A stretch of DNA of 64,000 nt from a virus. Below, piece by piece: positions 24,059-64,000 of the stretch; within the stretch, counting starts at the first letter, position 1, and each line of letters starts with the position of its first letter. The translations under genes were made by a program, and so were the position numbers. The stretch spans positions 129,158 through 193,157 of the IMG/VR virus record IMGVR_UViG_3300008952_000003. One strand, written 5' to 3'. A model generated the notes under the pieces. That model was not told where the DNA came from and searched no databases. It was given only the letters and a program-made list of their open reading frames with translations.

Positions 24059-25627
24059 TTGAAAAAACATTATGATTCTGGTTCCGAGATGAGTCAGCGT
24101 ATCTTGGCTGGCGTCAATAAGCTAGCAGATAACGTGGCTTCCACTCTGGGCCCAAGAGGCAGAAACGTCATATTGCAAGAAAAGAATAAGCGCCCCATTA
24201 TCACAAAAGATGGCGTTACGGTCGCAGGCTTTGTTGACCTTGAAGATCCTATCGAGAATGTGGGCGCCCAGATAATCAAGCAGGCAGCAGAACAAACCAA
24301 CTCTGATGCTGGTGACGGAACTACTACTGCCACGGTTCTTTCGAGAGCAATATTGAACGGGGCACAAAAGTATATATCATCTGGAGTACCTCCCATCGAG
24401 CTTCAGAGAGGAATAGAGAGGGCTGTACAGTCGATGGTGGAAAACCTCGACGCCGCCAGCCGCCCGATTATGTCCGAGGATGATATTGCCCACGTGGCCA
24501 CGATATCTGCAAATAACGATAAGCAAATTGGAAAACTCATAGCCCAGGCTGTATCTGCCGCTGGTAAGGACGGTGCGATAACTGTCGAAGAGGCCAGATC
24601 GTTTCAGACTAGTTTGGATTTGGTCGAGGGATTCAGGATGGATGCTGGCTATGCAGCCAGTGCCTTCATTACTGATGAGCGCCGCCGCGCAGTCCTATAC
24701 GAGGATCCAATGATCCTGGTTACAGATGAAAAAATTGATAATGTACATGATATTCTTCCCATTTTGGAACTCGCCGCACGCGAAGCTCGTCCTCTAATCT
24801 TTGTTGCTAGCGAGGTAGAGGGGCAAGCTCTCGCCGCGATGATCGTTAATGCCCTCAAGGGCACACTAAAGGTCGCCGCGATAAAGGCCCCAAGATACGG
24901 AGAGGAACGCAAGAATATCTTAAGTGATCTGGCGCTCTCTACGGGAGCAACCTTGATCACACGGTCAAGCGGGAAAAGATTAAAAGATGCTAAACTAGTG
25001 GACTTTGGAAGTGCATCGAGAGTGGACATCACCAGGGCGCAAACGACGATCGTCGGCGGAAATGGTGATCCAACTATGACTGAGATTAGAATTAATAGCC
25101 TTAAGGAAGAGTTGGTTGGTGAAGATAATCTGCATGAGTGCGAGAAGATACAGGACCGGATTTCACGTTTGGCCAGTGGTATCGCTATAATAAGAGTTGG
25201 TGCGTCTACGGAGATTGAAATGGTTGAGAAGAAGCACCGCATCGAAGATGCTCTTGAGGCAGTTCGCTCGGCCCAGATGGAGGGGATCGTAGAGGGTGGC
25301 GGCATCGCACTTCTCCGCGCCTCCACTGCGTTGAATGTGGAGGTCGAGAACCCGGACCAGGCGCTCGGTATTGAGATTATTAAGCAAGCTTCGCAGGCCC
25401 CGCTTCGGCAGATGGCAACTAATGCAGGCAGATCACCCGACATCATTTGTCAACTTGTTTTGGAGTCGAACATCGGCGACGGCTACGATTTTATAACTGA
25501 CTCCATCGTACATATGATTGATTCTGGAATAATAGATCCAGTGAGGGTTACTAAGAAAGCCCTTCAGAACGCGGCATCTGTATCTGGAACCCTGATAACA
25601 ACAAATTGTGCTGTGATTGAGGAGTGA
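24059..25627 (+). CDS. groEL: chaperonin GroEL (phage type, no GGM tail)
   Basis: TLGPRGRNV, ITKDGVTVA, AGDGTTTAT, KAPRYG, EGGG, IIDP. Confidence 0.96.
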   Translation: MKKHYDSGSEMSQRILAGVNKLADNVASTLGPRGRNVILQEKNKRPIITKDGVTVAGFVDLEDPIENVGAQIIKQAAEQTNSDAGDGTTTATVLSRAILNGAQKYISSGVPPIELQRGIERAVQSMVENLDAASRPIMSEDDIAHVATISANNDKQIGKLIAQAVSAAGKDGAITVEEARSFQTSLDLVEGFRMDAGYAASAFITDERRRAVLYEDPMILVTDEKIDNVHDILPILELAAREARPLIFVASEVEGQALAAMIVNALKGTLKVAAIKAPRYGEERKNILSDLALSTGATLITRSSGKRLKDAKLVDFGSASRVDITRAQTTIVGGNGDPTMTEIRINSLKEELVGEDNLHECEKIQDRISRLASGIAIIRVGASTEIEMVEKKHRIEDALEAVRSAQMEGIVEGGGIALLRASTALNVEVENPDQALGIEIIKQASQAPLRQMATNAGRSPDIICQLVLESNIGDGYDFITDSIVHMIDSGIIDPVRVTKKALQNAASVSGTLITTNCAVIEE

Positions 25628-37145: not shown

Positions 37146-37221
37146 ACGCTAGTAGCTCAGGGGTGAGAGCAGTCGTCTTATATGCGATTGGTCGGTGGTT
37201 CAAATCCACCCTAGCGTACCA
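37146..37221 (+). tRNA. tRNA-Ile, anticodon UAU
   Basis: ACGCTAG/CTAGCGT acceptor, GCTC/GAGC D arm, loop CT-TAT-AT, GGTGG-TTCAAAT-CCACC T arm, A73, CCA; 76 nt. Confidence 0.93.
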
Positions 37222-44339: not shown

Positions 44340-45674
44340 ATGACACCGACACCCTTTAATCTTGACGAACATATTGTTGGCCTTCTCCGAGACGAGCCCT
44401 TCTTCGCCGCCCTCTCGCGCCGCATGGAAAAGGTGGCATCGAGGTCAGTTCCTACGGCTGGAGTAGCTTTTAATGAGGAGCGCGCCCGGTTTGAGCTATA
44501 CTATAATCCCGAATTCATGGCAGACATGCTCTCGCAAGATAAGAAATATGTTAAGGGCATTCTTTTACACGAGTTCTATCATATCATGCTTTTACACGTA
44601 ACTTCTCGCATGCCCGAAGGCAAGATGACGAGAAAGTGGAATATCGCTACTGACCTCGCCATTAACAGCGAGCTATCTGTGTTTGCGGCTAACAGCGAAA
44701 CTCCAACTGGGTACGCCGTTGAAAGCTCGCTCTTGCCGCTCGATAAAGCGCTAATTCCCACTGTTGGGCCATTTTCCGAACTGAAGCCACATCTTTCGGC
44801 TGAAGAGTATATGGTTTTATTACCAGAATCCCCAGAGCAAGATAATAATCCAGCCGACGGCCCCGGCGAGCCCGGTGACGATTCTGACTCCGATGGTCCC
44901 GGCAACCCAAGCGACGGCGATGGTGGTTCGTCACCAAGCGACCAGGAAGGCGACGAACAAGGAGGAGAGGGAAGTGGAGACGGCAACGGCTTCGATGATC
45001 ATTCTGATTGGGGTTCTTCCGATGGTTCCGACGAGAATCGAAAAATAGCCGAAGAGAGACTAAAAGAAGCCATCAAGGAGGCATATGTCGAGGCCCAGTC
45101 TCGCGGTTTTGGTTCGGTTTCTGCTAGCATGAGGCGCACAATTAAGGATGTTATAACTCCCAAGGTAAACTGGCGCTCAATCCTGCGCTCTTTCGTCAAG
45201 GCTTCGCAGAGAGCAGATAGAACCTCAACTATCAAGCGCCTGAATCGCCGATACGCTTACATTCATCCAGGCCGCAAGGCAAAGCGTCAAGCTAAAATCG
45301 CGGTTTCAATTGACCAATCTGGCAGTGTTTCCGATGGCATGCTCGTTGCATTTTATGCAGAGCTTGAAAAGCTGGCAACCATCGCTGATTTTACGATTGT
45401 CCCCTTTGATACCGAGGTTGCAGAAGAGCACATCCATGTTTGGAAGAAGGGCGCCCGCCACGAAAAGACTCGCTATAAGCATGGTGGAACCTGCTTCAAC
45501 GCTCCAACCAGGTGGGTCAACGAGAATAACTTTGATGGTCACATTGTCCTGACTGATATGGAGGCTCCAAAGCCCATTCCTAGCAAGTGTCAGCGTATGT
45601 GGATGACAACCAAGGCGCATGCAGAACGCCCTTACTTCCAGACCAATGAGCGAGTGATAGCAATCAATGACTGA
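44340..45674 (+). CDS. DUF2201-like metallopeptidase plus vWA-like domain protein
   Basis: LLHEFYH, NIATDLAIN, acidic G/D/S linker, SIDQSGS MIDAS, GGTCF, LTD. Confidence 0.85.
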   Translation: MTPTPFNLDEHIVGLLRDEPFFAALSRRMEKVASRSVPTAGVAFNEERARFELYYNPEFMADMLSQDKKYVKGILLHEFYHIMLLHVTSRMPEGKMTRKWNIATDLAINSELSVFAANSETPTGYAVESSLLPLDKALIPTVGPFSELKPHLSAEEYMVLLPESPEQDNNPADGPGEPGDDSDSDGPGNPSDGDGGSSPSDQEGDEQGGEGSGDGNGFDDHSDWGSSDGSDENRKIAEERLKEAIKEAYVEAQSRGFGSVSASMRRTIKDVITPKVNWRSILRSFVKASQRADRTSTIKRLNRRYAYIHPGRKAKRQAKIAVSIDQSGSVSDGMLVAFYAELEKLATIADFTIVPFDTEVAEEHIHVWKKGARHEKTRYKHGGTCFNAPTRWVNENNFDGHIVLTDMEAPKPIPSKCQRMWMTTKAHAERPYFQTNERVIAIND

Positions 45675-57419: not shown

Positions 57420-58604
57420 ATGAAGGCTATTAAGAACAAGAAAAGATTTGATGCTCGCAGATTTCTCAGCGAGAGGAAAGAAGAAACTAAAGAGAATATT
57501 GAAGAAATTAAAGTGAGTTTTAATGATTTCTCGTTCGATAATTGGCTTGAAGAGGAGTCTGTTAAAGAATTTCAAGTTGGCGACGGCGCGCGTGATCCCT
57601 ATGCTCAGAGTGAAGTTCCACCGCCAACAAAAGAAAATCCAAAGCGAAAAAGTGACGAAGAGCTTGCTAAGGAACTAGCCGATCGCGAGCCTGGTAAAAT
57701 GGTTAAGAACACCTATGAAGAAGGCTGCGGCGAGCCAGAGATGGGTCCAGAAGAAGACGAGCTAGCAGTTACTGATCTTTCCCCGGATGAAGCATTTGGC
57801 GCAGGTTATACGGCTGCTGTGGAAGAAATTATGGCTTCAATTCAAGGCCTCTTGGAAGATCCAATAGAGATGGGTACTGCTCCTGGAGAGGAGGAGAAAG
57901 GAGCCGTTGACATCTCCGCTATATTCGAAGATGATGATGAAATGGTTGGCCAACTTCCAAAAGCAACAGAGTATAGCCCTGATGATCCCGTTTATATGAT
58001 CACTACTAATGACGGAAAAAACCCCGAGCACAAGTCGCAGAGCGCCAATGAAATCGGAGACTGGTACGATAAATTCAGTGAGGAGGGTTATTCAGATGAA
58101 CAAATAATAGTAACAAAAAACCGTGATCCACTTAACGATATATTCGACGAGCCTGGATACGACGTTAACGGCGACGAGCGACCGGAGTGGGAAGACGAAG
58201 CCGCCGAGCTGGATAGGGGGCTCCAAGGAAAAACGTCTGGACGTGTTGATTATGGGATCGGTACCCCGCGACTCAAAAGTGGATCACGTATCCCGCGAGC
58301 GGGTCGGCGAGGTGTTAGTGAATCCCTGCGTGTTCAAGAAGATTCAGACCAAGAAGAAAGGGATACAGCAGTTCAAAAATTGGATGATATAGTCAACAAA
58401 GACTGGAAAGAAAAACATTACTATGTCATAAAGCGTGGGGAAATGAGAAGTGTCAGAAAACCGGGAACCCTCGGCCCCAAGGGTCATGAAGTTGTACGCC
58501 AAAGAACCGAAGACGGACTTAGATCTTTCGCGAGTAGATTGAAGGCTGGGGGAGAGCCATATGCTACCAATTTACCTGACGAGCTAGACCTAGAAGAATC
58601 CTGA
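57420..58604 (+). CDS. acidic low-complexity late protein, candidate internal virion protein
   Basis: E/D-rich, LSE/LEE/VSE motifs, late motif upstream. Confidence 0.6.
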   Translation: MKAIKNKKRFDARRFLSERKEETKENIEEIKVSFNDFSFDNWLEEESVKEFQVGDGARDPYAQSEVPPPTKENPKRKSDEELAKELADREPGKMVKNTYEEGCGEPEMGPEEDELAVTDLSPDEAFGAGYTAAVEEIMASIQGLLEDPIEMGTAPGEEEKGAVDISAIFEDDDEMVGQLPKATEYSPDDPVYMITTNDGKNPEHKSQSANEIGDWYDKFSEEGYSDEQIIVTKNRDPLNDIFDEPGYDVNGDERPEWEDEAAELDRGLQGKTSGRVDYGIGTPRLKSGSRIPRAGRRGVSESLRVQEDSDQEERDTAVQKLDDIVNKDWKEKHYYVIKRGEMRSVRKPGTLGPKGHEVVRQRTEDGLRSFASRLKAGGEPYATNLPDELDLEES

Positions 58605-58672
58605 ACAGAAGAAAACGATCAGGGTGATCAAGATGATATCTAAAATAGTTTTAATATTTTTTATTTTATGTA

Positions 58673-58701
58673 TTGCATCTTTCATATGTTCGTGGTATAA
58701 T
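58673..58701 (+). promoter_or_regulatory. sigma70-type promoter (for 58707 and tmRNA)
   Basis: TTGCAT-17-TATAAT with TGn. Confidence 0.65.
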
Positions 58702-58706
58702 ATGAC

Positions 58707-58979
58707 ATGGATTGGTTGAGCAAAGAAGTAATTGAGGAACTCAGATTGATCATCAAGCGTCAAACTTCCGTTCTCAAACAAGTTCAAGTTAGAAAAGAGG
58801 ATGCTCTAGTCGAGTACGAGTTAAACAAAAAAATAGAAGATGAAATGATGCAAGAAGAGTGGATGATGCGCAGAGCTATCGCTCTTTTAAAAGATGCATA
58901 CGAAAACGTATATCATACTGAGCCGAATTTAAAAGGGATTAATAAAGAAGAACCTATATTTACAGGTGATGAAAAATAG
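58707..58979 (+). CDS. small coiled-coil hypothetical protein
   Basis: ORF behind promoter. Confidence 0.55.
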   Translation: MDWLSKEVIEELRLIIKRQTSVLKQVQVRKEDALVEYELNKKIEDEMMQEEWMMRRAIALLKDAYENVYHTEPNLKGINKEEPIFTGDEK

Positions 58980-59085
58980 AATTCCAAAAGAAGATTATAT
59001 TACTGTTGCTTTTAGTTCATTGATGGCCATTGCTTTTTTCTTTCTACTATTGTGGATGGCATTATCTGCAAATGGCTGTTTATAA
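58969..59085 (+). CDS. small membrane protein (38 aa)
   Basis: one TM helix, overlaps upstream stop. Confidence 0.5.
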   Translation: MKNRIPKEDYITVAFSSLMAIAFFFLLLWMALSANGCL

Positions 59086-59098
59086 AAAAACATTTAAC

Positions 59099-59438
59099 GG
59101 GGGTGCCCTGGCTTCGACGTGGTAATAGAAATGGATAGTGCAGGTGGTCTACTTCAATAAATGACCTTAAACTTATTGAACTCATGATAATTGCCAATAA
59201 CAATAATCATTTTCAAGCTGTAGCCCTCGCGGCTTAGTTTGCTGGGTTTTCGTTGACCTTGTTACCCAATAGCGAATAAGCAGGTGATTCTGCCGACAGC
59301 AAAACATCCGAGTTGTTAATGCTTGTAAAGCAGCGGGAATTTAACAAGCCATTTGATTGTTTAAGAAAATAATCTAAACCTGTGAACGACTTGAACTGGA
59401 CATTATTGCGGACGCGGGTTCGATTCCCGCCACCTCCA
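59099..59438 (+). ncRNA. ssrA: tmRNA
   Basis: GGGGGTG/CACCTCC acceptor with G3.U70, TTCGAC 5' motif, T arm GCGGG-TTCGATT-CCCGC, tag ORF 59193-59237 = ANNNNHFQAVALAA*. Confidence 0.95.
59422..59438 (+). repeat. 17-bp direct repeat, left copy (tmRNA 3' end)
   Basis: GATTCCCGCCACCTCCA, followed by ACT (no CCA). Confidence 0.95.
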
Positions 59439-60045
59439 ACTCCACCTAAAAAACAGGGCATTTCCACCTTCTTGTGACTATTTATTCATAGGAGGGCGGA
59501 AATGTCCAAAATTGAAATTGAATGTTTTTACTGTAATACAAAATTTAAAAAAAGAAAAGCAGAACATAATAGAAGTTTAAAACTTGGAAGAAAATCATTT
59601 TGTTCTAGAAGATGTGCTGGAAAAATTAATGCTTCTAACCTAAAAGAGTTTCGAGGAATTGGCATGCCGGAAAACTTTGTAAGCGATAATAGACGAGACG
59701 AATACTCTGAATTCAAATGGTTTATGAGGTGTATACGCCGAAGAAAGAAACAATATAATGTTGATTTAAAATTCTTAAAGCAAATTTGGTTAGAACAAAA
59801 AGGTATTTGCCCGATTACTGGTTGGGAATTGGCATTACCAAAACATTCTTCTGACTGGGGATCAAAACAGGATAAAATGTTCCGTGCTTCTCTAGACAGG
59901 ATAGACAATCAACTTGGGTATGTAAAGGGAAATGTAAGATTTATAGCGGTAATAGCAAATTACTGTAAAAACGAATTTAGTGATGATGATTTGATGTTAT
60001 TTTGTGAGGCAGTTACATCAAATAAGTAGATTCCCGCCACCTCCA
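59439..60045 (+). mobile_element. HNH endonuclease cassette inserted at the tmRNA 3' end
   Basis: single AT-rich ORF with own late motif (59477-59484) between 17-bp direct repeats. Confidence 0.75.
59502..60029 (+). CDS. HNH / His-Me finger endonuclease with N-terminal Zn finger
   Basis: CFYC...FCSRRC; CPITG...ASLDRID..GYVKGNV...AN.CK. Confidence 0.8.
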   Translation: MSKIEIECFYCNTKFKKRKAEHNRSLKLGRKSFCSRRCAGKINASNLKEFRGIGMPENFVSDNRRDEYSEFKWFMRCIRRRKKQYNVDLKFLKQIWLEQKGICPITGWELALPKHSSDWGSKQDKMFRASLDRIDNQLGYVKGNVRFIAVIANYCKNEFSDDDLMLFCEAVTSNK

Positions 60046-60048
60046 CCA
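60029..60048 (+). repeat. 17-bp direct repeat, right copy plus CCA (displaced tmRNA 3' end)
   Basis: GATTCCCGCCACCTCCA-CCA. Confidence 0.95.
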
Positions 60049-60072
60049 TTTTATTTTAACATGAGGATAAAA

Positions 60073-60201
60073 ATGCAAGAAGAAGAAAAAGAAGAAGAAA
60101 GGCCACACTTAGATAACGCCCTTGAGGAATGCGGAGATGCATGCTCGGCTGAATTTGAAGATGTGTGGAATATTTGGGATTGGCATAAAGGGTGGGGTTG
60201 A
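60073..60201 (+). CDS. small acidic hypothetical protein
   Basis: SD GAGGA before ATG 60073. Confidence 0.45.
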   Translation: MQEEEKEEERPHLDNALEECGDACSAEFEDVWNIWDWHKGWG

Positions 60202-60204
60202 AAA

Positions 60205-60471
60205 ATGAGACCTTTAAAAATTGAACCAAAAGAAGTCGATATAATTGTCGCGTCGTTGGGTAACTCCCTTGATATTTGGGGAAAACGAATTGATAATAGA
60301 GACTTACCAGAAGATTTTGACGATGGCATTGCCGAAAGTCTATTTCTTGATATGTTGGCAACATATGATAAGTTTTTAGAATTTCAATTTCAAATGTCAG
60401 AAGATTTAGAGAATGAGGCCGAGGAAGCCCCAGAGAACGTAATCCCATTCCGGATTCCCGATGGGCCCTGA
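60205..60471 (+). CDS. small acidic hypothetical protein
   Basis: C-terminal NVIPF motif. Confidence 0.6.
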   Translation: MRPLKIEPKEVDIIVASLGNSLDIWGKRIDNRDLPEDFDDGIAESLFLDMLATYDKFLEFQFQMSEDLENEAEEAPENVIPFRIPDGP

Positions 60472-60637
60472 TGAAGAGGGTAAAGAATTAACACTCGAAG
60501 AGTTGGAGTTTGTTCGTGGCGGATTTGATTATTCTGGCTTCTATAAATACCGTGCGGAAATTCTAAATAATTTCAAACTAAAAGATAAATCTAGCAACTA
60601 TTTATTGGTAAAAGAGGAGTACCCATCAAATGACTAG
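60461..60637 (+). CDS. 58-aa peptide with double-glycine (bacteriocin-type) leader motif
   Basis: MGPDEEGKELTLEELEFVRGG-FDYSGFY...; overlaps both neighbours as in an operon. Confidence 0.6.
   Translation: MGPDEEGKELTLEELEFVRGGFDYSGFYKYRAEILNNFKLKDKSSNYLLVKEEYPSND
60597..60604 (+). promoter_or_regulatory. putative late promoter
   Basis: ACTATTTA upstream of 60630. Confidence 0.6.
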
Positions 60638-61274
60638 ATCTACAATTCACGGGAGCCAAATCAGAGACGAAACCGTAACTGATTCTGATATCGCCGAAAA
60701 TGCCATCGGAGCGAGTGAAATAGGGAGCGGCTCAATTTGTGATCAAGTTGAGGTCACCGATATAAATGCTGATGATTGTATTTTAATCAGCAAAACAGAT
60801 GATTCTGGAAATCTCAAGAAAGTAAAGATTATGAATCTCGCGGGGGCAGCTTCATTTGATAGCTCTCCTTCTCAAACTTTCTTGCAATCTACGGAGCATG
60901 GATATGATAAGAGTGACAATAAATTAATTTTTATCCCATGGTATGAAAAGACAGAAAAAACATCTCCAGATTATTTAGATCAGCATATTGCACCCTTTGA
61001 CGGGAGACTTTTAAAAGTTTATGTAAGAAGCTCTCAAAATAACATGGACTCTACCATCGTTGGGATTCATCTAAACGATGCTGGCGAGTCTGAAGTTTCT
61101 ACCAGCCCGCTTGAAACAGTCACTTCAACCATCGCAGATGACGCTGTTGGAGTTTTTGAATTTTCTTCTGCTTCTCATTTTTCAGCTGGCGATATTGTTG
61201 GAATAAGTATCAATCCCACGGGTGATCATAAAAAAGTTAATGTTACCTGTGTTTGGGAATATACATTATCGTAG
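60630..61274 (+). CDS. probable virion structural / tail-associated protein
   Basis: HGSQIRDETVTDSDIAENAI repeats typical of fibre-associated proteins; beta-rich C-domain. Confidence 0.55.
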   Translation: MTRSTIHGSQIRDETVTDSDIAENAIGASEIGSGSICDQVEVTDINADDCILISKTDDSGNLKKVKIMNLAGAASFDSSPSQTFLQSTEHGYDKSDNKLIFIPWYEKTEKTSPDYLDQHIAPFDGRLLKVYVRSSQNNMDSTIVGIHLNDAGESEVSTSPLETVTSTIADDAVGVFEFSSASHFSAGDIVGISINPTGDHKKVNVTCVWEYTLS

Positions 61275-61287
61275 AATTTTAAATTGT

Positions 61288-61295
61288 ACTATTTA
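61288..61295 (+). promoter_or_regulatory. putative late promoter (leaderless type)
   Basis: ACTATTTA, 5 nt before GTG 61301. Confidence 0.6.
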
Positions 61296-61300
61296 TAGGC

Positions 61301-61639
61301 GTGTATGAATATCAAGCAAGATTGTTGAGAGTTGTTGATGGAGATACTATCGATGCCACGATTGACCTCGGTTTCGACGTGTGGGTTAAGAAAAGGGTGC
61401 GATTATACGGCATAGACGCTCCGGAAAGCCGCACTAGGGACCTCGAAGAGAAGAAGAGGGGTCTCGAAGCGAAGGAAAAGCTAATAGATCTCCTCGAAGC
61501 CTGTAACGGCGAATTTGTGATTAAGTCACACGGGGTGGGAAAATATGGTAGATGCCTCGGCGTGATAATCGTCGATGGCGAAAACATCAATGAATCTCTC
61601 ATAAAAGAAGGCTATGCCAAGGAATATTTAAAAAAATGA
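61301..61639 (+). CDS. thermonuclease (SNase-like)
   Basis: RVVDGDT, VRLYGIDAPES, GKYGRCLG, GYA. Confidence 0.92.
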   Translation: MYEYQARLLRVVDGDTIDATIDLGFDVWVKKRVRLYGIDAPESRTRDLEEKKRGLEAKEKLIDLLEACNGEFVIKSHGVGKYGRCLGVIIVDGENINESLIKEGYAKEYLKK

Positions 61640-62546: not shown

Positions 62547-62563
62547 TTAGAAAGGATTTAAGA

Positions 62564-62920
62564 ATGCCCACGAAAAAATCGATAAAACTGTCCCATGATG
62601 ATATCAGAGGTATCATAGACAGGCAAGCAGCGGAAGCAAGAGAGGCCGCAATTGAGCAAAAAAGAGTCAATCTCGGGAAAGATCCCAAAAAAGCACAACA
62701 AATTAGCAGAAAACCCATTGCGGTTTTGAAAAAGACTTTTGAAACAGAAAAACAAATTGTTAGAGACAGAAGAAGAAAAGGAGTTACTATGATTAGTATT
62801 GTCAAAGAAACGTTGGAACTCACGAAAGAGTTCGCAACACTAAAATCTCCAGTTGAAGTTTATATCTTCGTTGCTGGAGTTTGGCTAACTGGTGTAGGCA
62901 TCGGCGCGATTTTAGGCTAG
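62564..62920 (+). CDS. hypothetical protein with C-terminal TM helix
   Basis: charged N-terminus, hydrophobic tail. Confidence 0.6.
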   Translation: MPTKKSIKLSHDDIRGIIDRQAAEAREAAIEQKRVNLGKDPKKAQQISRKPIAVLKKTFETEKQIVRDRRRKGVTMISIVKETLELTKEFATLKSPVEVYIFVAGVWLTGVGIGAILG

Positions 62921-62929
62921 GTAGTCTAG

Positions 62930-63841
62930 ATGGCAAAGATTCCATACAACATCTGTGATGAATCTCTTCTGGAGAAAGAGGCTAAAAGTGCTCGTCTTCT
63001 GGAGGGGATTTATCACAGAGGTCAAATAAAGATCTGGGATGGCAATAAGATCCTCGATGATCTCATAGGTAAACACGGAGTTATAGAGATCAAGGACGAG
63101 GACGCAGTCGCCTTAAGGAATATATTCTCGATTATCCTCTGGGGTGAATTGGTTGCCTGGAAGGTTTCTCTCCAACTCGGTGCAGAAATCGATGACTTCT
63201 CTGCAAAGTTGGCCGCAACTTCACAGGCACATGATGAAGCAAGACACTTTTATGTAATGAAAGATTATCTTGATTTGCTTGGTTATGAACCGGCCCCCTT
63301 AACGCCTTCTGTCGCTCGTGTTCTCAATGAGGTTTTACAAACAAAGAACTTAGCAAAAAAGCTCCTTGGCATGCAGCTAATGATAGAGCCGATTGCTTTA
63401 ACAATTTTTAGATTTACGAGACAATTAAATATAGAACCCATTCTAACAGATCTTCTTTCTTATTATGAAATAGATGAAGCAAGACACGTTGCTCTGGGAA
63501 TCCAGTACCTTCCGAGGCTGATGAAAAGGATGAACAAGTTTCAATTAGCATCTCTTATCATGTGGCAAGCTAAAATAATAAATGCTGAAATGATTGGTCT
63601 AAAGGAAATAGAAGGGGACATTATCTCCCTTGGGCTAAATCCATTAGAAGTTTTCGAATACGCTGAAAAGAAACAGATGGAGTGTCTCGAACTGGCTCTT
63701 TCGGAGTTGGGGATAAAGGACGCATTGTGGCCTCCGTTGCGGAAGGTCGTTCAATTTAGAAAAAATCTTACGTTTTATCCGAATAAGAGCCATGGCTCTA
63801 TAAAAAAGATTATAAATTCTTTTCTAAATCTTTTCCACTAA
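62930..63841 (+). CDS. ferritin-like diiron-carboxylate domain protein
   Basis: WGE...DEARH...IE...DEARH duplicated ExxH motifs. Confidence 0.85.
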   Translation: MAKIPYNICDESLLEKEAKSARLLEGIYHRGQIKIWDGNKILDDLIGKHGVIEIKDEDAVALRNIFSIILWGELVAWKVSLQLGAEIDDFSAKLAATSQAHDEARHFYVMKDYLDLLGYEPAPLTPSVARVLNEVLQTKNLAKKLLGMQLMIEPIALTIFRFTRQLNIEPILTDLLSYYEIDEARHVALGIQYLPRLMKRMNKFQLASLIMWQAKIINAEMIGLKEIEGDIISLGLNPLEVFEYAEKKQMECLELALSELGIKDALWPPLRKVVQFRKNLTFYPNKSHGSIKKIINSFLNLFH

Positions 63842-63941
63842 ATTTTATTCGTCATCACAATCGCAATTTGTTTTCTCGATAGCACTTATTGATTTAGAAA
63901 CTATTTGATTTGTATTGTATTGTACAAAAGAAAATAAACCA

Positions 63942-64000
63942 ATGGCTAATATTAGTGAAGTGATTATTAATAAAAATTTGTTTGGCGCCTTCATTTCTCT
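63942..64000 (+). CDS. start of a protein (partial)
   Basis: ATG after ACTATTTG (63900), open to window end. Confidence 0.45.
   Translation, partial: MANISEVIINKNLFGAFIS

Follow-up and report, generated by a model that had tools for sequence, protein, structure and literature searches.

A putative free-standing homing-endonuclease cassette in the 3′ end of a phage tmRNA gene, with neither intron nor integrase

Introduction

Homing endonuclease genes are, to our knowledge, thought to survive in essential genes only by means of introns or inteins, or else to reside between genes. The present work deals with a short insert in the 3′ end of a transfer-messenger RNA (tmRNA) gene of a large marine phage. 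The stretch of DNA analysed (hereafter, the window) represents the last 64 kb of the 193,157-bp IMG/VR record IMGVR_UViG_3300008952_000003 (G000), which is 100% complete according to CheckV. The end of the tmRNA gene is present here as copy 1, used by the gene, and as copy 2, displaced downstream, and an open reading frame (ORF) for a predicted HNH nuclease is located between them. The segment 59439-60045 of the window is probably a mobile, free-standing homing-endonuclease cassette residing in the 3′ end of the tmRNA gene, with neither an intron nor an integrase. A minimal homing element of this kind at the end of an RNA gene was suggested in a preliminary description made from the sequence alone, and is supported by the empty site in relatives, the association of the nuclease family with tmRNA genes and the lack of recombinase and ribozyme matches reported below.

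The closest known systems are the fungal mitochondrial ORFs known as mORFs and the free-standing endonucleases of T-even phages. Among the latter, MobE is reportedly encoded beside nrdB. SegB is encoded in a tRNA cluster and is an example of intronless homing (PMC2988022). The mORFs come with a gene terminus of foreign origin, which displaces the native terminus; they were described in atp6 of Allomyces macrogynus and in atp6, atp9, cox2 and nad3 of Glomus (PMC3630166).

Similar to mORFs, the cassette of the window brings an endonuclease gene into the 3′ part of a gene, the substitute end being used and the native end being displaced downstream and unused; the uninterrupted gene is kept in close relatives, and the substitute end can be foreign, as in locus L244 compared with L074 (see below). 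Unlike in mORFs, the invaded gene is a phage structural RNA gene and not a mitochondrial protein gene, with which the mORF is often fused in frame; accordingly, there is no reading frame to preserve, and only base pairs in the T-arm and acceptor stem have to be kept. The nuclease is of a predicted PacI-like HNH type, not LAGLIDADG or GIY-YIG, and the duplication is short, 17-26 nt, with no differences between the copies. With the free-standing endonucleases of T-even phages the element shares a small gene beside its presumed target, a patchy distribution among relatives and a hairpin-masked ribosome-binding site with a promoter-like element. However, the T-even genes are located between genes and use flanking homology on both sides, whereas the cassette of the window is located inside the 3′ end of a gene, carries a replacement end together with a copy of the target end and encodes a nuclease of a different family, which lacks a Pfam match and has an arginine where the first histidine is expected. 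In the literature, we found no account of a tmRNA gene whose end is replaced by an HNH cassette.

The tmRNA gene and its duplicated 3′ end

The functional tmRNA gene, full-length and one-piece, occupies positions 59099-59438 of the plus strand according to ARAGORN and matches Rfam family RF00023 over model positions 1-374 (119 bits, E 2e-47), with the T-arm and acceptor stem paired; the tag peptide is ANNNNHFQAVALAA. The 3′ end used by this gene, copy 1, is the 17-mer GATTCCCGCCACCTCCA at positions 59422-59438 (plus strand, exact match), which spans the tmRNA from G57 of the T-loop to the discriminator A73 (tRNA numbering). The same 17-mer is present at 60029-60045, at a distance of 607 bp. 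The repeat reported in the preliminary description is thus exact, and no other site was found on the plus strand of the window even with two mismatches allowed; none of 100 dinucleotide-preserving shuffles contained a match. Copy 2 (60029-60054, plus strand) consists of the displaced 17-mer plus CCATTTTAT, and its 26 nt are identical to the single tmRNA ends of the related genomes G001, G002 and G003. Copy 2 is the native end of the tmRNA gene in its native downstream context, now lying outside the RNA gene.

Only a 63-nt leader and a 175-aa ORF are present between the two copies. The stop codon TAG (60027-60029) ends on the first base of the repeat, as had been noticed before, and 0 nt separate it from copy 2. 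The gene in the window does not encode CCA, the discriminator of copy 1 being followed by ACT, while copy 2 is followed by CCA as the start of the CCATTTTAT context. The earlier observation that only the downstream copy carries CCA therefore holds for the window, but not generally: in loci L006, L007 and L010, the cassettes of which are 90% identical to that of the window, copy 2 is followed by CTA.

Occupied and empty alleles

The 87-kb viral record G001, which holds locus L099, came from a scan of viral contigs with the 3′ end of the tmRNA. It encodes a tmRNA that shares 92% identity with that of the window and has the same T-arm. The 17-mer occurs in G001 once and is directly followed by CCATTTTATTCTAACATGAGG, which begins as the CCATTTTAT context of the window, and by a homologue of the ORF at 60205; the endolysin gene and further genes follow in the same order as in the window. 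Since the single 17-mer runs straight into the downstream DNA of the window, G001 lacks exactly 607 bases, corresponding to positions 59439-60045 (plus strand); because of the repeat, the boundary is ambiguous, and the insert may equally be drawn as 59422-60028. In the more distant relatives G002 (190 kb) and G003, the tmRNA is 75% identical, the 26-mer occurs only once and the nuclease gene is absent. The empty site that the preliminary description expected in relatives was thus found in G001 and, with a single 26-mer, in G002 and G003; each of these three genomes without the nuclease carries one copy of the repeat, not both. The proposed displacement of the original 3′ end by an insert of about 0.6 kb agrees with G001, which lacks the 607 bases.

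Another phage lineage contains a second pair of alleles, the occupied locus L244, with a nuclease 73% identical to that of the window, and the empty locus L074, with flanks 99-100% identical; a precise empty site among close relatives is thereby known in two pairs, G000 with G001 and L244 with L074. Between L244 and L074 both strands of the T-stem beside the cassette are changed, GCGGG/CCCGC to AGGCG/CGCCT, and the native end behind the stop codon of L244 is reduced to CTCCA. Co-conversion of the flanking target sequence is seen in this pair and is not visible in the window, the T-arm of which is the same as in G001. The difference between L244 and L074 is as expected from gene conversion with a foreign donor.

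The cassette also shows horizontal spread, being near-identical in otherwise divergent genomes. The similarity of the window to L006 and L007 is limited to positions 59367-60067; the cassette is ~90% identical, the tmRNA body ~60-70%, and the neighbouring genes are unrelated. Identity of ~90% over the cassette, again with unrelated flanks, was found for L010. A contig of a public marine run of 2015 (X10) matches positions 59372-60059 with 98% identity, although its tmRNA body is only ~87% identical and a different sequence follows after 60059. A contig from a run of another marine study of 2024 (X3) matches 59417-60059 with 99% identity and continues with the same foreign downstream sequence as X10. 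In L245 (1339-1854), the nuclease gene is ~97% identical to that of the window over its first part, is interrupted by TGA in frame and ends with C-terminal sequence of another clade; the tmRNA adjoining it has a very similar tag, ANNNNQFHSIALAA. By sequence, L245 is apparently a decaying, recombinant copy, representing the decay stage of such elements.

The nuclease and its family

The ORF at positions 59502-60029 (plus strand; 175 aa) has its own ribosome-binding site and start codon and is not fused in frame to the host gene. It is predicted to encode a nuclease with an N-terminal zinc ribbon (CxxC...C...C) and a C-terminal PacI-like HNH domain of the beta-beta-alpha-metal type. No match was found in Pfam-A at E<=0.1, and none of the 98 homologous clusters contains a precomputed Pfam domain; matches in PHROG were 3322 'endonuclease' (1.6e-17) and 3118 'HNH endonuclease' (6e-9). 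For residues 64-175 of the AlphaFold2 model (pLDDT 88.9), the best structural match is PacI (PDB 3ldy; Z 6.2, rmsd 5.0, 100 residues aligned). Other structural matches are mostly HNH domains, including the Gme HNH nickase (Z 5.0) and many HNH domains of Cas9 (Z 3-4), all these Z values being moderate; Foldseek gave no match for the model at E<=0.001. PacI is also the best match of the family profile in PDB (E 0.0054), with the common motif DR.D..GY..N.R......N, and the N-terminus matches an MYM zinc finger there (E 0.0064). The zinc ribbon and the matches to PHROG and PacI agree with the earlier reading of the ORF as a zinc-finger HNH nuclease.

In the alignment of 44 members, the zinc ribbon cysteines C8, C11, C34 and C38 are invariant, the motif ASLDRID-x3-GY-x3-N-x8-N is present, and residues D132, N144 and N153 are invariant or nearly so. 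This pattern, together with the alignment to PacI, fits the PacI branch, not the classical HNH motif. PacI differs in being a restriction enzyme that recognises 8 bp; no more than 13-17% of the residues are identical, and the nuclease of the window has a different zinc ribbon at its N-terminus. In the structural work on PacI, a tyrosine is said to start cleavage. The family comprises 98 clusters at 90% identity, all metagenomic and without names, and 1,071 representatives were recovered by profile search at E<=1e-30.

A further HNH endonuclease gene (PHROG 1314), unrelated to this one, is present in the window at 44340-45671.

Association of the nuclease family with tmRNA genes

All four relatives from viral contigs (61-90% identity) start 63 nt downstream of a tmRNA, and a wider scan of viral contigs with a peptide pattern returned the same four loci and no more. 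In L016, L018 and L022/23 (42-53% identity), the tmRNA is directly upstream of the nuclease gene. In L017, it is directly downstream. In a survey of metagenome relatives, represented by the best 80 of at least 533, the tmRNA adjoins the nuclease gene in at least 57 of the 80. It is directly upstream on the same strand in 26 according to ARAGORN and in ~19 more via Rfam; in three, a truncated 3′ end of the tmRNA is left at the edge of the contig, seven have a convergent tmRNA and two lie beside permuted tmRNAs. Six others adjoin group I introns, as do the relatives from crAss-like gut phages. The suggestion that homologues of the nuclease would be found adjacent to such genes was thus borne out, including duplications of the 3′ fragment in several independent clades. 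From this distribution, the family looks specialised on the tmRNA genes of phages.

Displaced 3′ fragments of tmRNA after the nuclease gene were found in L154, L176/177, L184, L195, L197, L215 and L156/157. The fragment of L154 comprises 17 nt and also starts at position 57; five junctions of the displaced fragments lie in or beside the T-loop, and the boundaries of the repeat differ among the cassette clades.

In L166 (1827-2490) and L220 (1723-2460), the T-loop of the tmRNA is interrupted after U55 by a group I intron without an ORF (96-98 bits), and the free-standing nuclease gene is located behind the 3′ exon and a terminator. The nuclease genes lie outside the intron, and the family is therefore free-standing even when an intron is present. 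This arrangement, an ORF-less T-loop intron with a free-standing nuclease gene just downstream, is similar to collaborative homing, which is reported for F-CphI and the ORF-less psbA intron of cyanophage S-PM2 and for mobE and the nrdB intron of T4. Unlike in these cases, the window contains no intron, and protection of the occupied allele would have to come from the insertion or the duplication itself.

Among cultured and GenBank phages, the protein search revealed full-length relatives only in crAss-like gut phages (~41% identity), and none was seen beside a tmRNA in a cultured phage. A DNA search of the GenBank phage collection with positions 58000-61500 revealed no relative of the locus, the only short match being to an SNase-like gene at 61301; an exact scan of viral contigs for the tmRNA 5′ end found nothing.

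The members from gut phages (L019-L021, L178, L199, L202, L203, L206, L213 and the GenBank crAss-like cr128_1, cr56_1 and cr113_1) overlap or abut a group I intron on the opposite strand; in some of them TAG is recoded as glutamine, and no tmRNA was detected there. In L209 (1275-1680), a GOLLD RNA (335 bits) is located directly behind the pair of tmRNA and nuclease genes. Matches to RAGATH-7-assoc, RAGATH-9, RAGATH-22 and the Hatchet ribozyme were found near members of the family in L161, L165, L169, L189 and L191, at least two of these loci (L161 and L165) coming from gut-type assemblies.

The leader of the nuclease gene

The leader begins directly 3′ of the discriminator with the left-end motif ACTCCACC (NNTCCACC), located at 59439-59446 (plus strand). 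Among 56 T-arm-like ends located upstream of HNH relatives, 14, from several clades, have the motif NNTCCAC(C) immediately after the discriminator, compared with one of 80 viral tmRNA ends taken regardless of the nuclease, this one being the record of L007 itself. It is present in L007, L009, L018, L154, L156, L185, L197, L200, L244 and L246. By sequence, the motif resembles the terminal TCCACCA, of which it could be a short additional copy.

An RNA hairpin is formed by positions 59456-59507 (plus strand), in which the Shine-Dalgarno sequence AGGAGG (59490-59495) and the AUG (59502) pair with the upstream strand; its minimum free energy is -32.6 kcal/mol (z -7.2), and none of 200 shuffles was as stable. 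Equivalent hairpins with changed base pairs are present in L007, L008, L016 and L022. The loop contains the promoter-like motif CTATTTAT (59478-59485, plus strand). Genome-wide, the motif AAnAAACTATTTATA occurs 25 times on the forward and twice on the reverse strand, with 4.7 occurrences expected per strand; within the final 9 kb of the window, its occurrences (57385, 59478, 60598, 61289 and 62540) precede ORF starts by 12-35 nt. It is a candidate promoter of this phage group and corresponds to the late promoter of the preliminary description, for which a late timing would be conjectural. In T4, the genes of homing endonucleases have a promoter inside the hairpin that masks the ribosome-binding site (PMC2988022), and by analogy the control layout of the nuclease gene resembles theirs.

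The motif AAnAAACTATTTATA was also found after tmRNA genes in other marine phage contigs, namely, L039, L052 and L074.

Proposed mechanism and alternative explanations

The mobile unit would comprise the replacement 3′ end of the tmRNA (copy 1, G57-A73), the 63-nt leader and the nuclease gene. During a mixed infection, the nuclease would cut cassette-free tmRNA genes in or near the T-arm or the 3′ end, and the break would be repaired by copying the occupied allele; the tract copied would include the nuclease gene together with the replacement end and, in some cases, a portion of the tmRNA. Copy 2 would supply the only homology needed on the right side, and the cassette could therefore move between phages that share only a tmRNA gene. 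The occupied allele would be protected, since the insertion parts the left and right halves of the target, and the tmRNA would stay functional, since copy 1 rebuilds the T-arm and acceptor stem; the missing CCA would be added after transcription.

For the cut site and for copy 2 as a homology arm, as proposed here, the chances appear close to balanced, though slightly on the unfavourable side. Somewhat more tentative is the broader view of copy 2 as a built-in, portable right-hand homology arm of a self-contained RNA-gene homing cassette, with a T-loop 56/57 junction common to at least two nuclease clades. These junctions (marked by a slash) are AAGTA/G57 in the clade of the window and TTTGT/G57 in the clade of L154 and L156 and in a third copy of the tmRNA end described below. 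If this view is correct, the cassette could invade any phage tmRNA gene, whatever adjoins it, and the 56/57 junction would have been reached or inherited by two or more nuclease clades.

Several observations weigh against a homing cassette of this kind. Homologous repair would have only 17 to 31 nt to work with, which is very little. In most relatives a second copy cannot be recognised, and copy 2 is therefore not needed for the residence of the family at tmRNA genes. In the window and in L006, L007 and L010, copies 1 and 2 are mutually identical, yet the lineages differ at two positions, which match the T-stem and acceptor partners of each lineage; this identity within genomes strains a model of one-sided repair, under which one of the copies should be that of the donor. 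The identical copies may be due to donors that already had the same end, to heteroduplex correction or to selection acting on copy 2. The activity of the nuclease, its discrimination of alleles and its target are predictions, and the canonical histidine acting as general base in HNH nucleases is replaced by the invariant arginine R133; as PacI shows the same DR.D..GY..N.R......N pattern, this replacement probably characterises the PacI branch and would not indicate decay. The joint of 59438 to 60046, characteristic of the empty allele, was not seen in contigs of four runs, which has little weight, as contigs drop rare variants.

Integrase-driven islands at tRNA and tmRNA genes are classically recognised by direct repeats of the 3′ end of the gene at both borders, and the locus has an exact 17-nt repeat of this kind. 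Classical integration by an integrase acting in trans, with the repeats as attL and attR, is nevertheless highly improbable. No tyrosine or serine recombinase (PF00589 and PF00239) was found in the whole 193-kb record, while the same profiles matched 14/14 and 12/14 control genomes, and the insert, described from the outset as integrase-less, carries the nuclease gene only. The boundaries of the repeat vary among cassette clades, and in L244 the T-arm upstream of the junction is replaced as well, which fits gene conversion and not a conservative crossover. Slightly less improbable, although still very unlikely, is a degenerate T-loop group I intron, of which the endonuclease gene persisted without the ribozyme and in which a duplicated 3′ exon restored the tmRNA. 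Group I introns in tmRNA are known at four T-loop subsites, with LAGLIDADG endonuclease genes inside; the 2025 tmRNA database paper describing them mentions neither HNH cassettes nor end duplication (PMC11915505). Such introns are well known (PMC11915505), and the cassette is located in the same gene as they are and enters it at the same few nucleotides; the intron of L166 and L220 follows U55, one base from the 56/57 boundary of the repeat, and the same nuclease family is present there. Unlike these introns, the cassette of the window has no ribozyme or splicing. The search of positions 58500-60700 with cmscan at E<=1 revealed the tmRNA and two weak unrelated matches only, with no match to Intron_gpI, in agreement with the earlier view that the insert contains no intron. 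Only 63 nt separate copy 1 from the ORF, and 0 nt separate the stop codon from copy 2. The nuclease genes of L166 and L220 are not intron-borne but follow the 3′ exon and a terminator.

The nuclease may instead be a weapon or an accessory factor of the phage, tied to the function of tmRNA, for example, cutting ssrA of the host or of a competing phage in host takeover or marker exclusion, with the duplication as an incidental scar. Such a role would account for the persistence of the gene beside tmRNA genes in relatives down to ~35-40% identity, for the missing second copy in most relatives and for expression that looks regulated in step with the phage programme, as the hairpin and promoter-like motif suggest. 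However, close relatives differ in the presence of the gene at a precise empty site, near-identical cassettes are found in unrelated backbones, a decayed copy is present in L245, and relatives also occur beside group I introns; such traits are typical of selfish homing genes. A weapon is thus an unlikely explanation, though less so than the integrase or the intron. The free-standing endonucleases of T4 act both selfishly and as weapons, so that this explanation and a homing cassette overlap (PMC2988022).

A third copy of the tmRNA end and neighbouring genes

A third copy of the tmRNA 3′ end is located just past the end of the window, at G000:C1:177-202, and has 26-nt identity to copy 2, including CCATTTTAT. 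In a circular record its distance downstream of copy 2 would be ~4.1 kb; the ends of the G000 contig showed no overlap, and circular closure is assumed from synteny only. The left flank of copy 3 (~47 nt; flank and copy together, L003:130-202) is homologous to the 3′ ends of nuclease genes in the clade of L151-L156. At copy 3, a small ORF ends with ...EQKVYT*, and the nuclease of L153 ends with ...KKVYT* on nearly the same DNA. The junction TTTGT/G57 is the same as in L154, L156/157 and L152. Because of this flank and the common junction, copy 3 may be regarded as the fossil of a second cassette from a different clade. No homologue of its flanks was found in G001, G002 or G003.

An island bounded by copies 2 and 3 was considered and rejected, as the homologue of the ORF at 60205 and the endolysin gene located between them are syntenic with G001; for the same reason, the genes between the two copies are native and not cargo. 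The 42-aa acidic ORF at 60073-60201 is absent from this position in G001, where the end of the tmRNA meets the homologue of 60205 at once. Its homologue in G001 is located 2.3 kb further on, at 67386-67481, and it is therefore a small shuffled gene.

Positions 62555-63982 of the window and G000:C1:4125-6272 represent collinear, diverged paralogous blocks (56% at the protein level), each containing a 118-aa ORF, an ORF of ~300 aa and a small ORF on the minus strand. The ~300-aa ORFs (56% identical) were read by eye as candidate di-iron or ferritin-like proteins. The second block is followed by a tRNA-Ala gene, the 3′ end of which resembles the end of the tmRNA. The comparison of the blocks suggests acquisition of a homologous segment from another phage, and the region of copy 3 and the paralogous blocks is apparently a mosaic.

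The genome G000 belongs to a large marine phage and encodes a DnaB-like helicase, ribonucleotide reductase, a DNA polymerase of 1,143 aa and GroEL; the window contains a GroEL-like chaperonin gene at 24059-25627 and a tRNA-Ile gene with the anticodon TAT at 37146-37221.

Significance

The cassette would represent a third way for homing endonuclease genes to survive, here in a structural RNA, by cutting into the conserved end of a gene and bringing a spare end. It would explain mosaic tmRNA genes of phages and the breaks of assemblies at these genes. In annotation, a tmRNA 3′ fragment found displaced in a phage genome should not be taken for an integration site. A large nuclease family without an entry in Pfam has been defined, with many natural variants, target sites that are probably long and programmable by evolution, and one conserved RNA gene. 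With both empty and occupied alleles known, the locus offers a testable system linking free-standing endonucleases, ORF-less T-loop introns and the duplication of gene ends.

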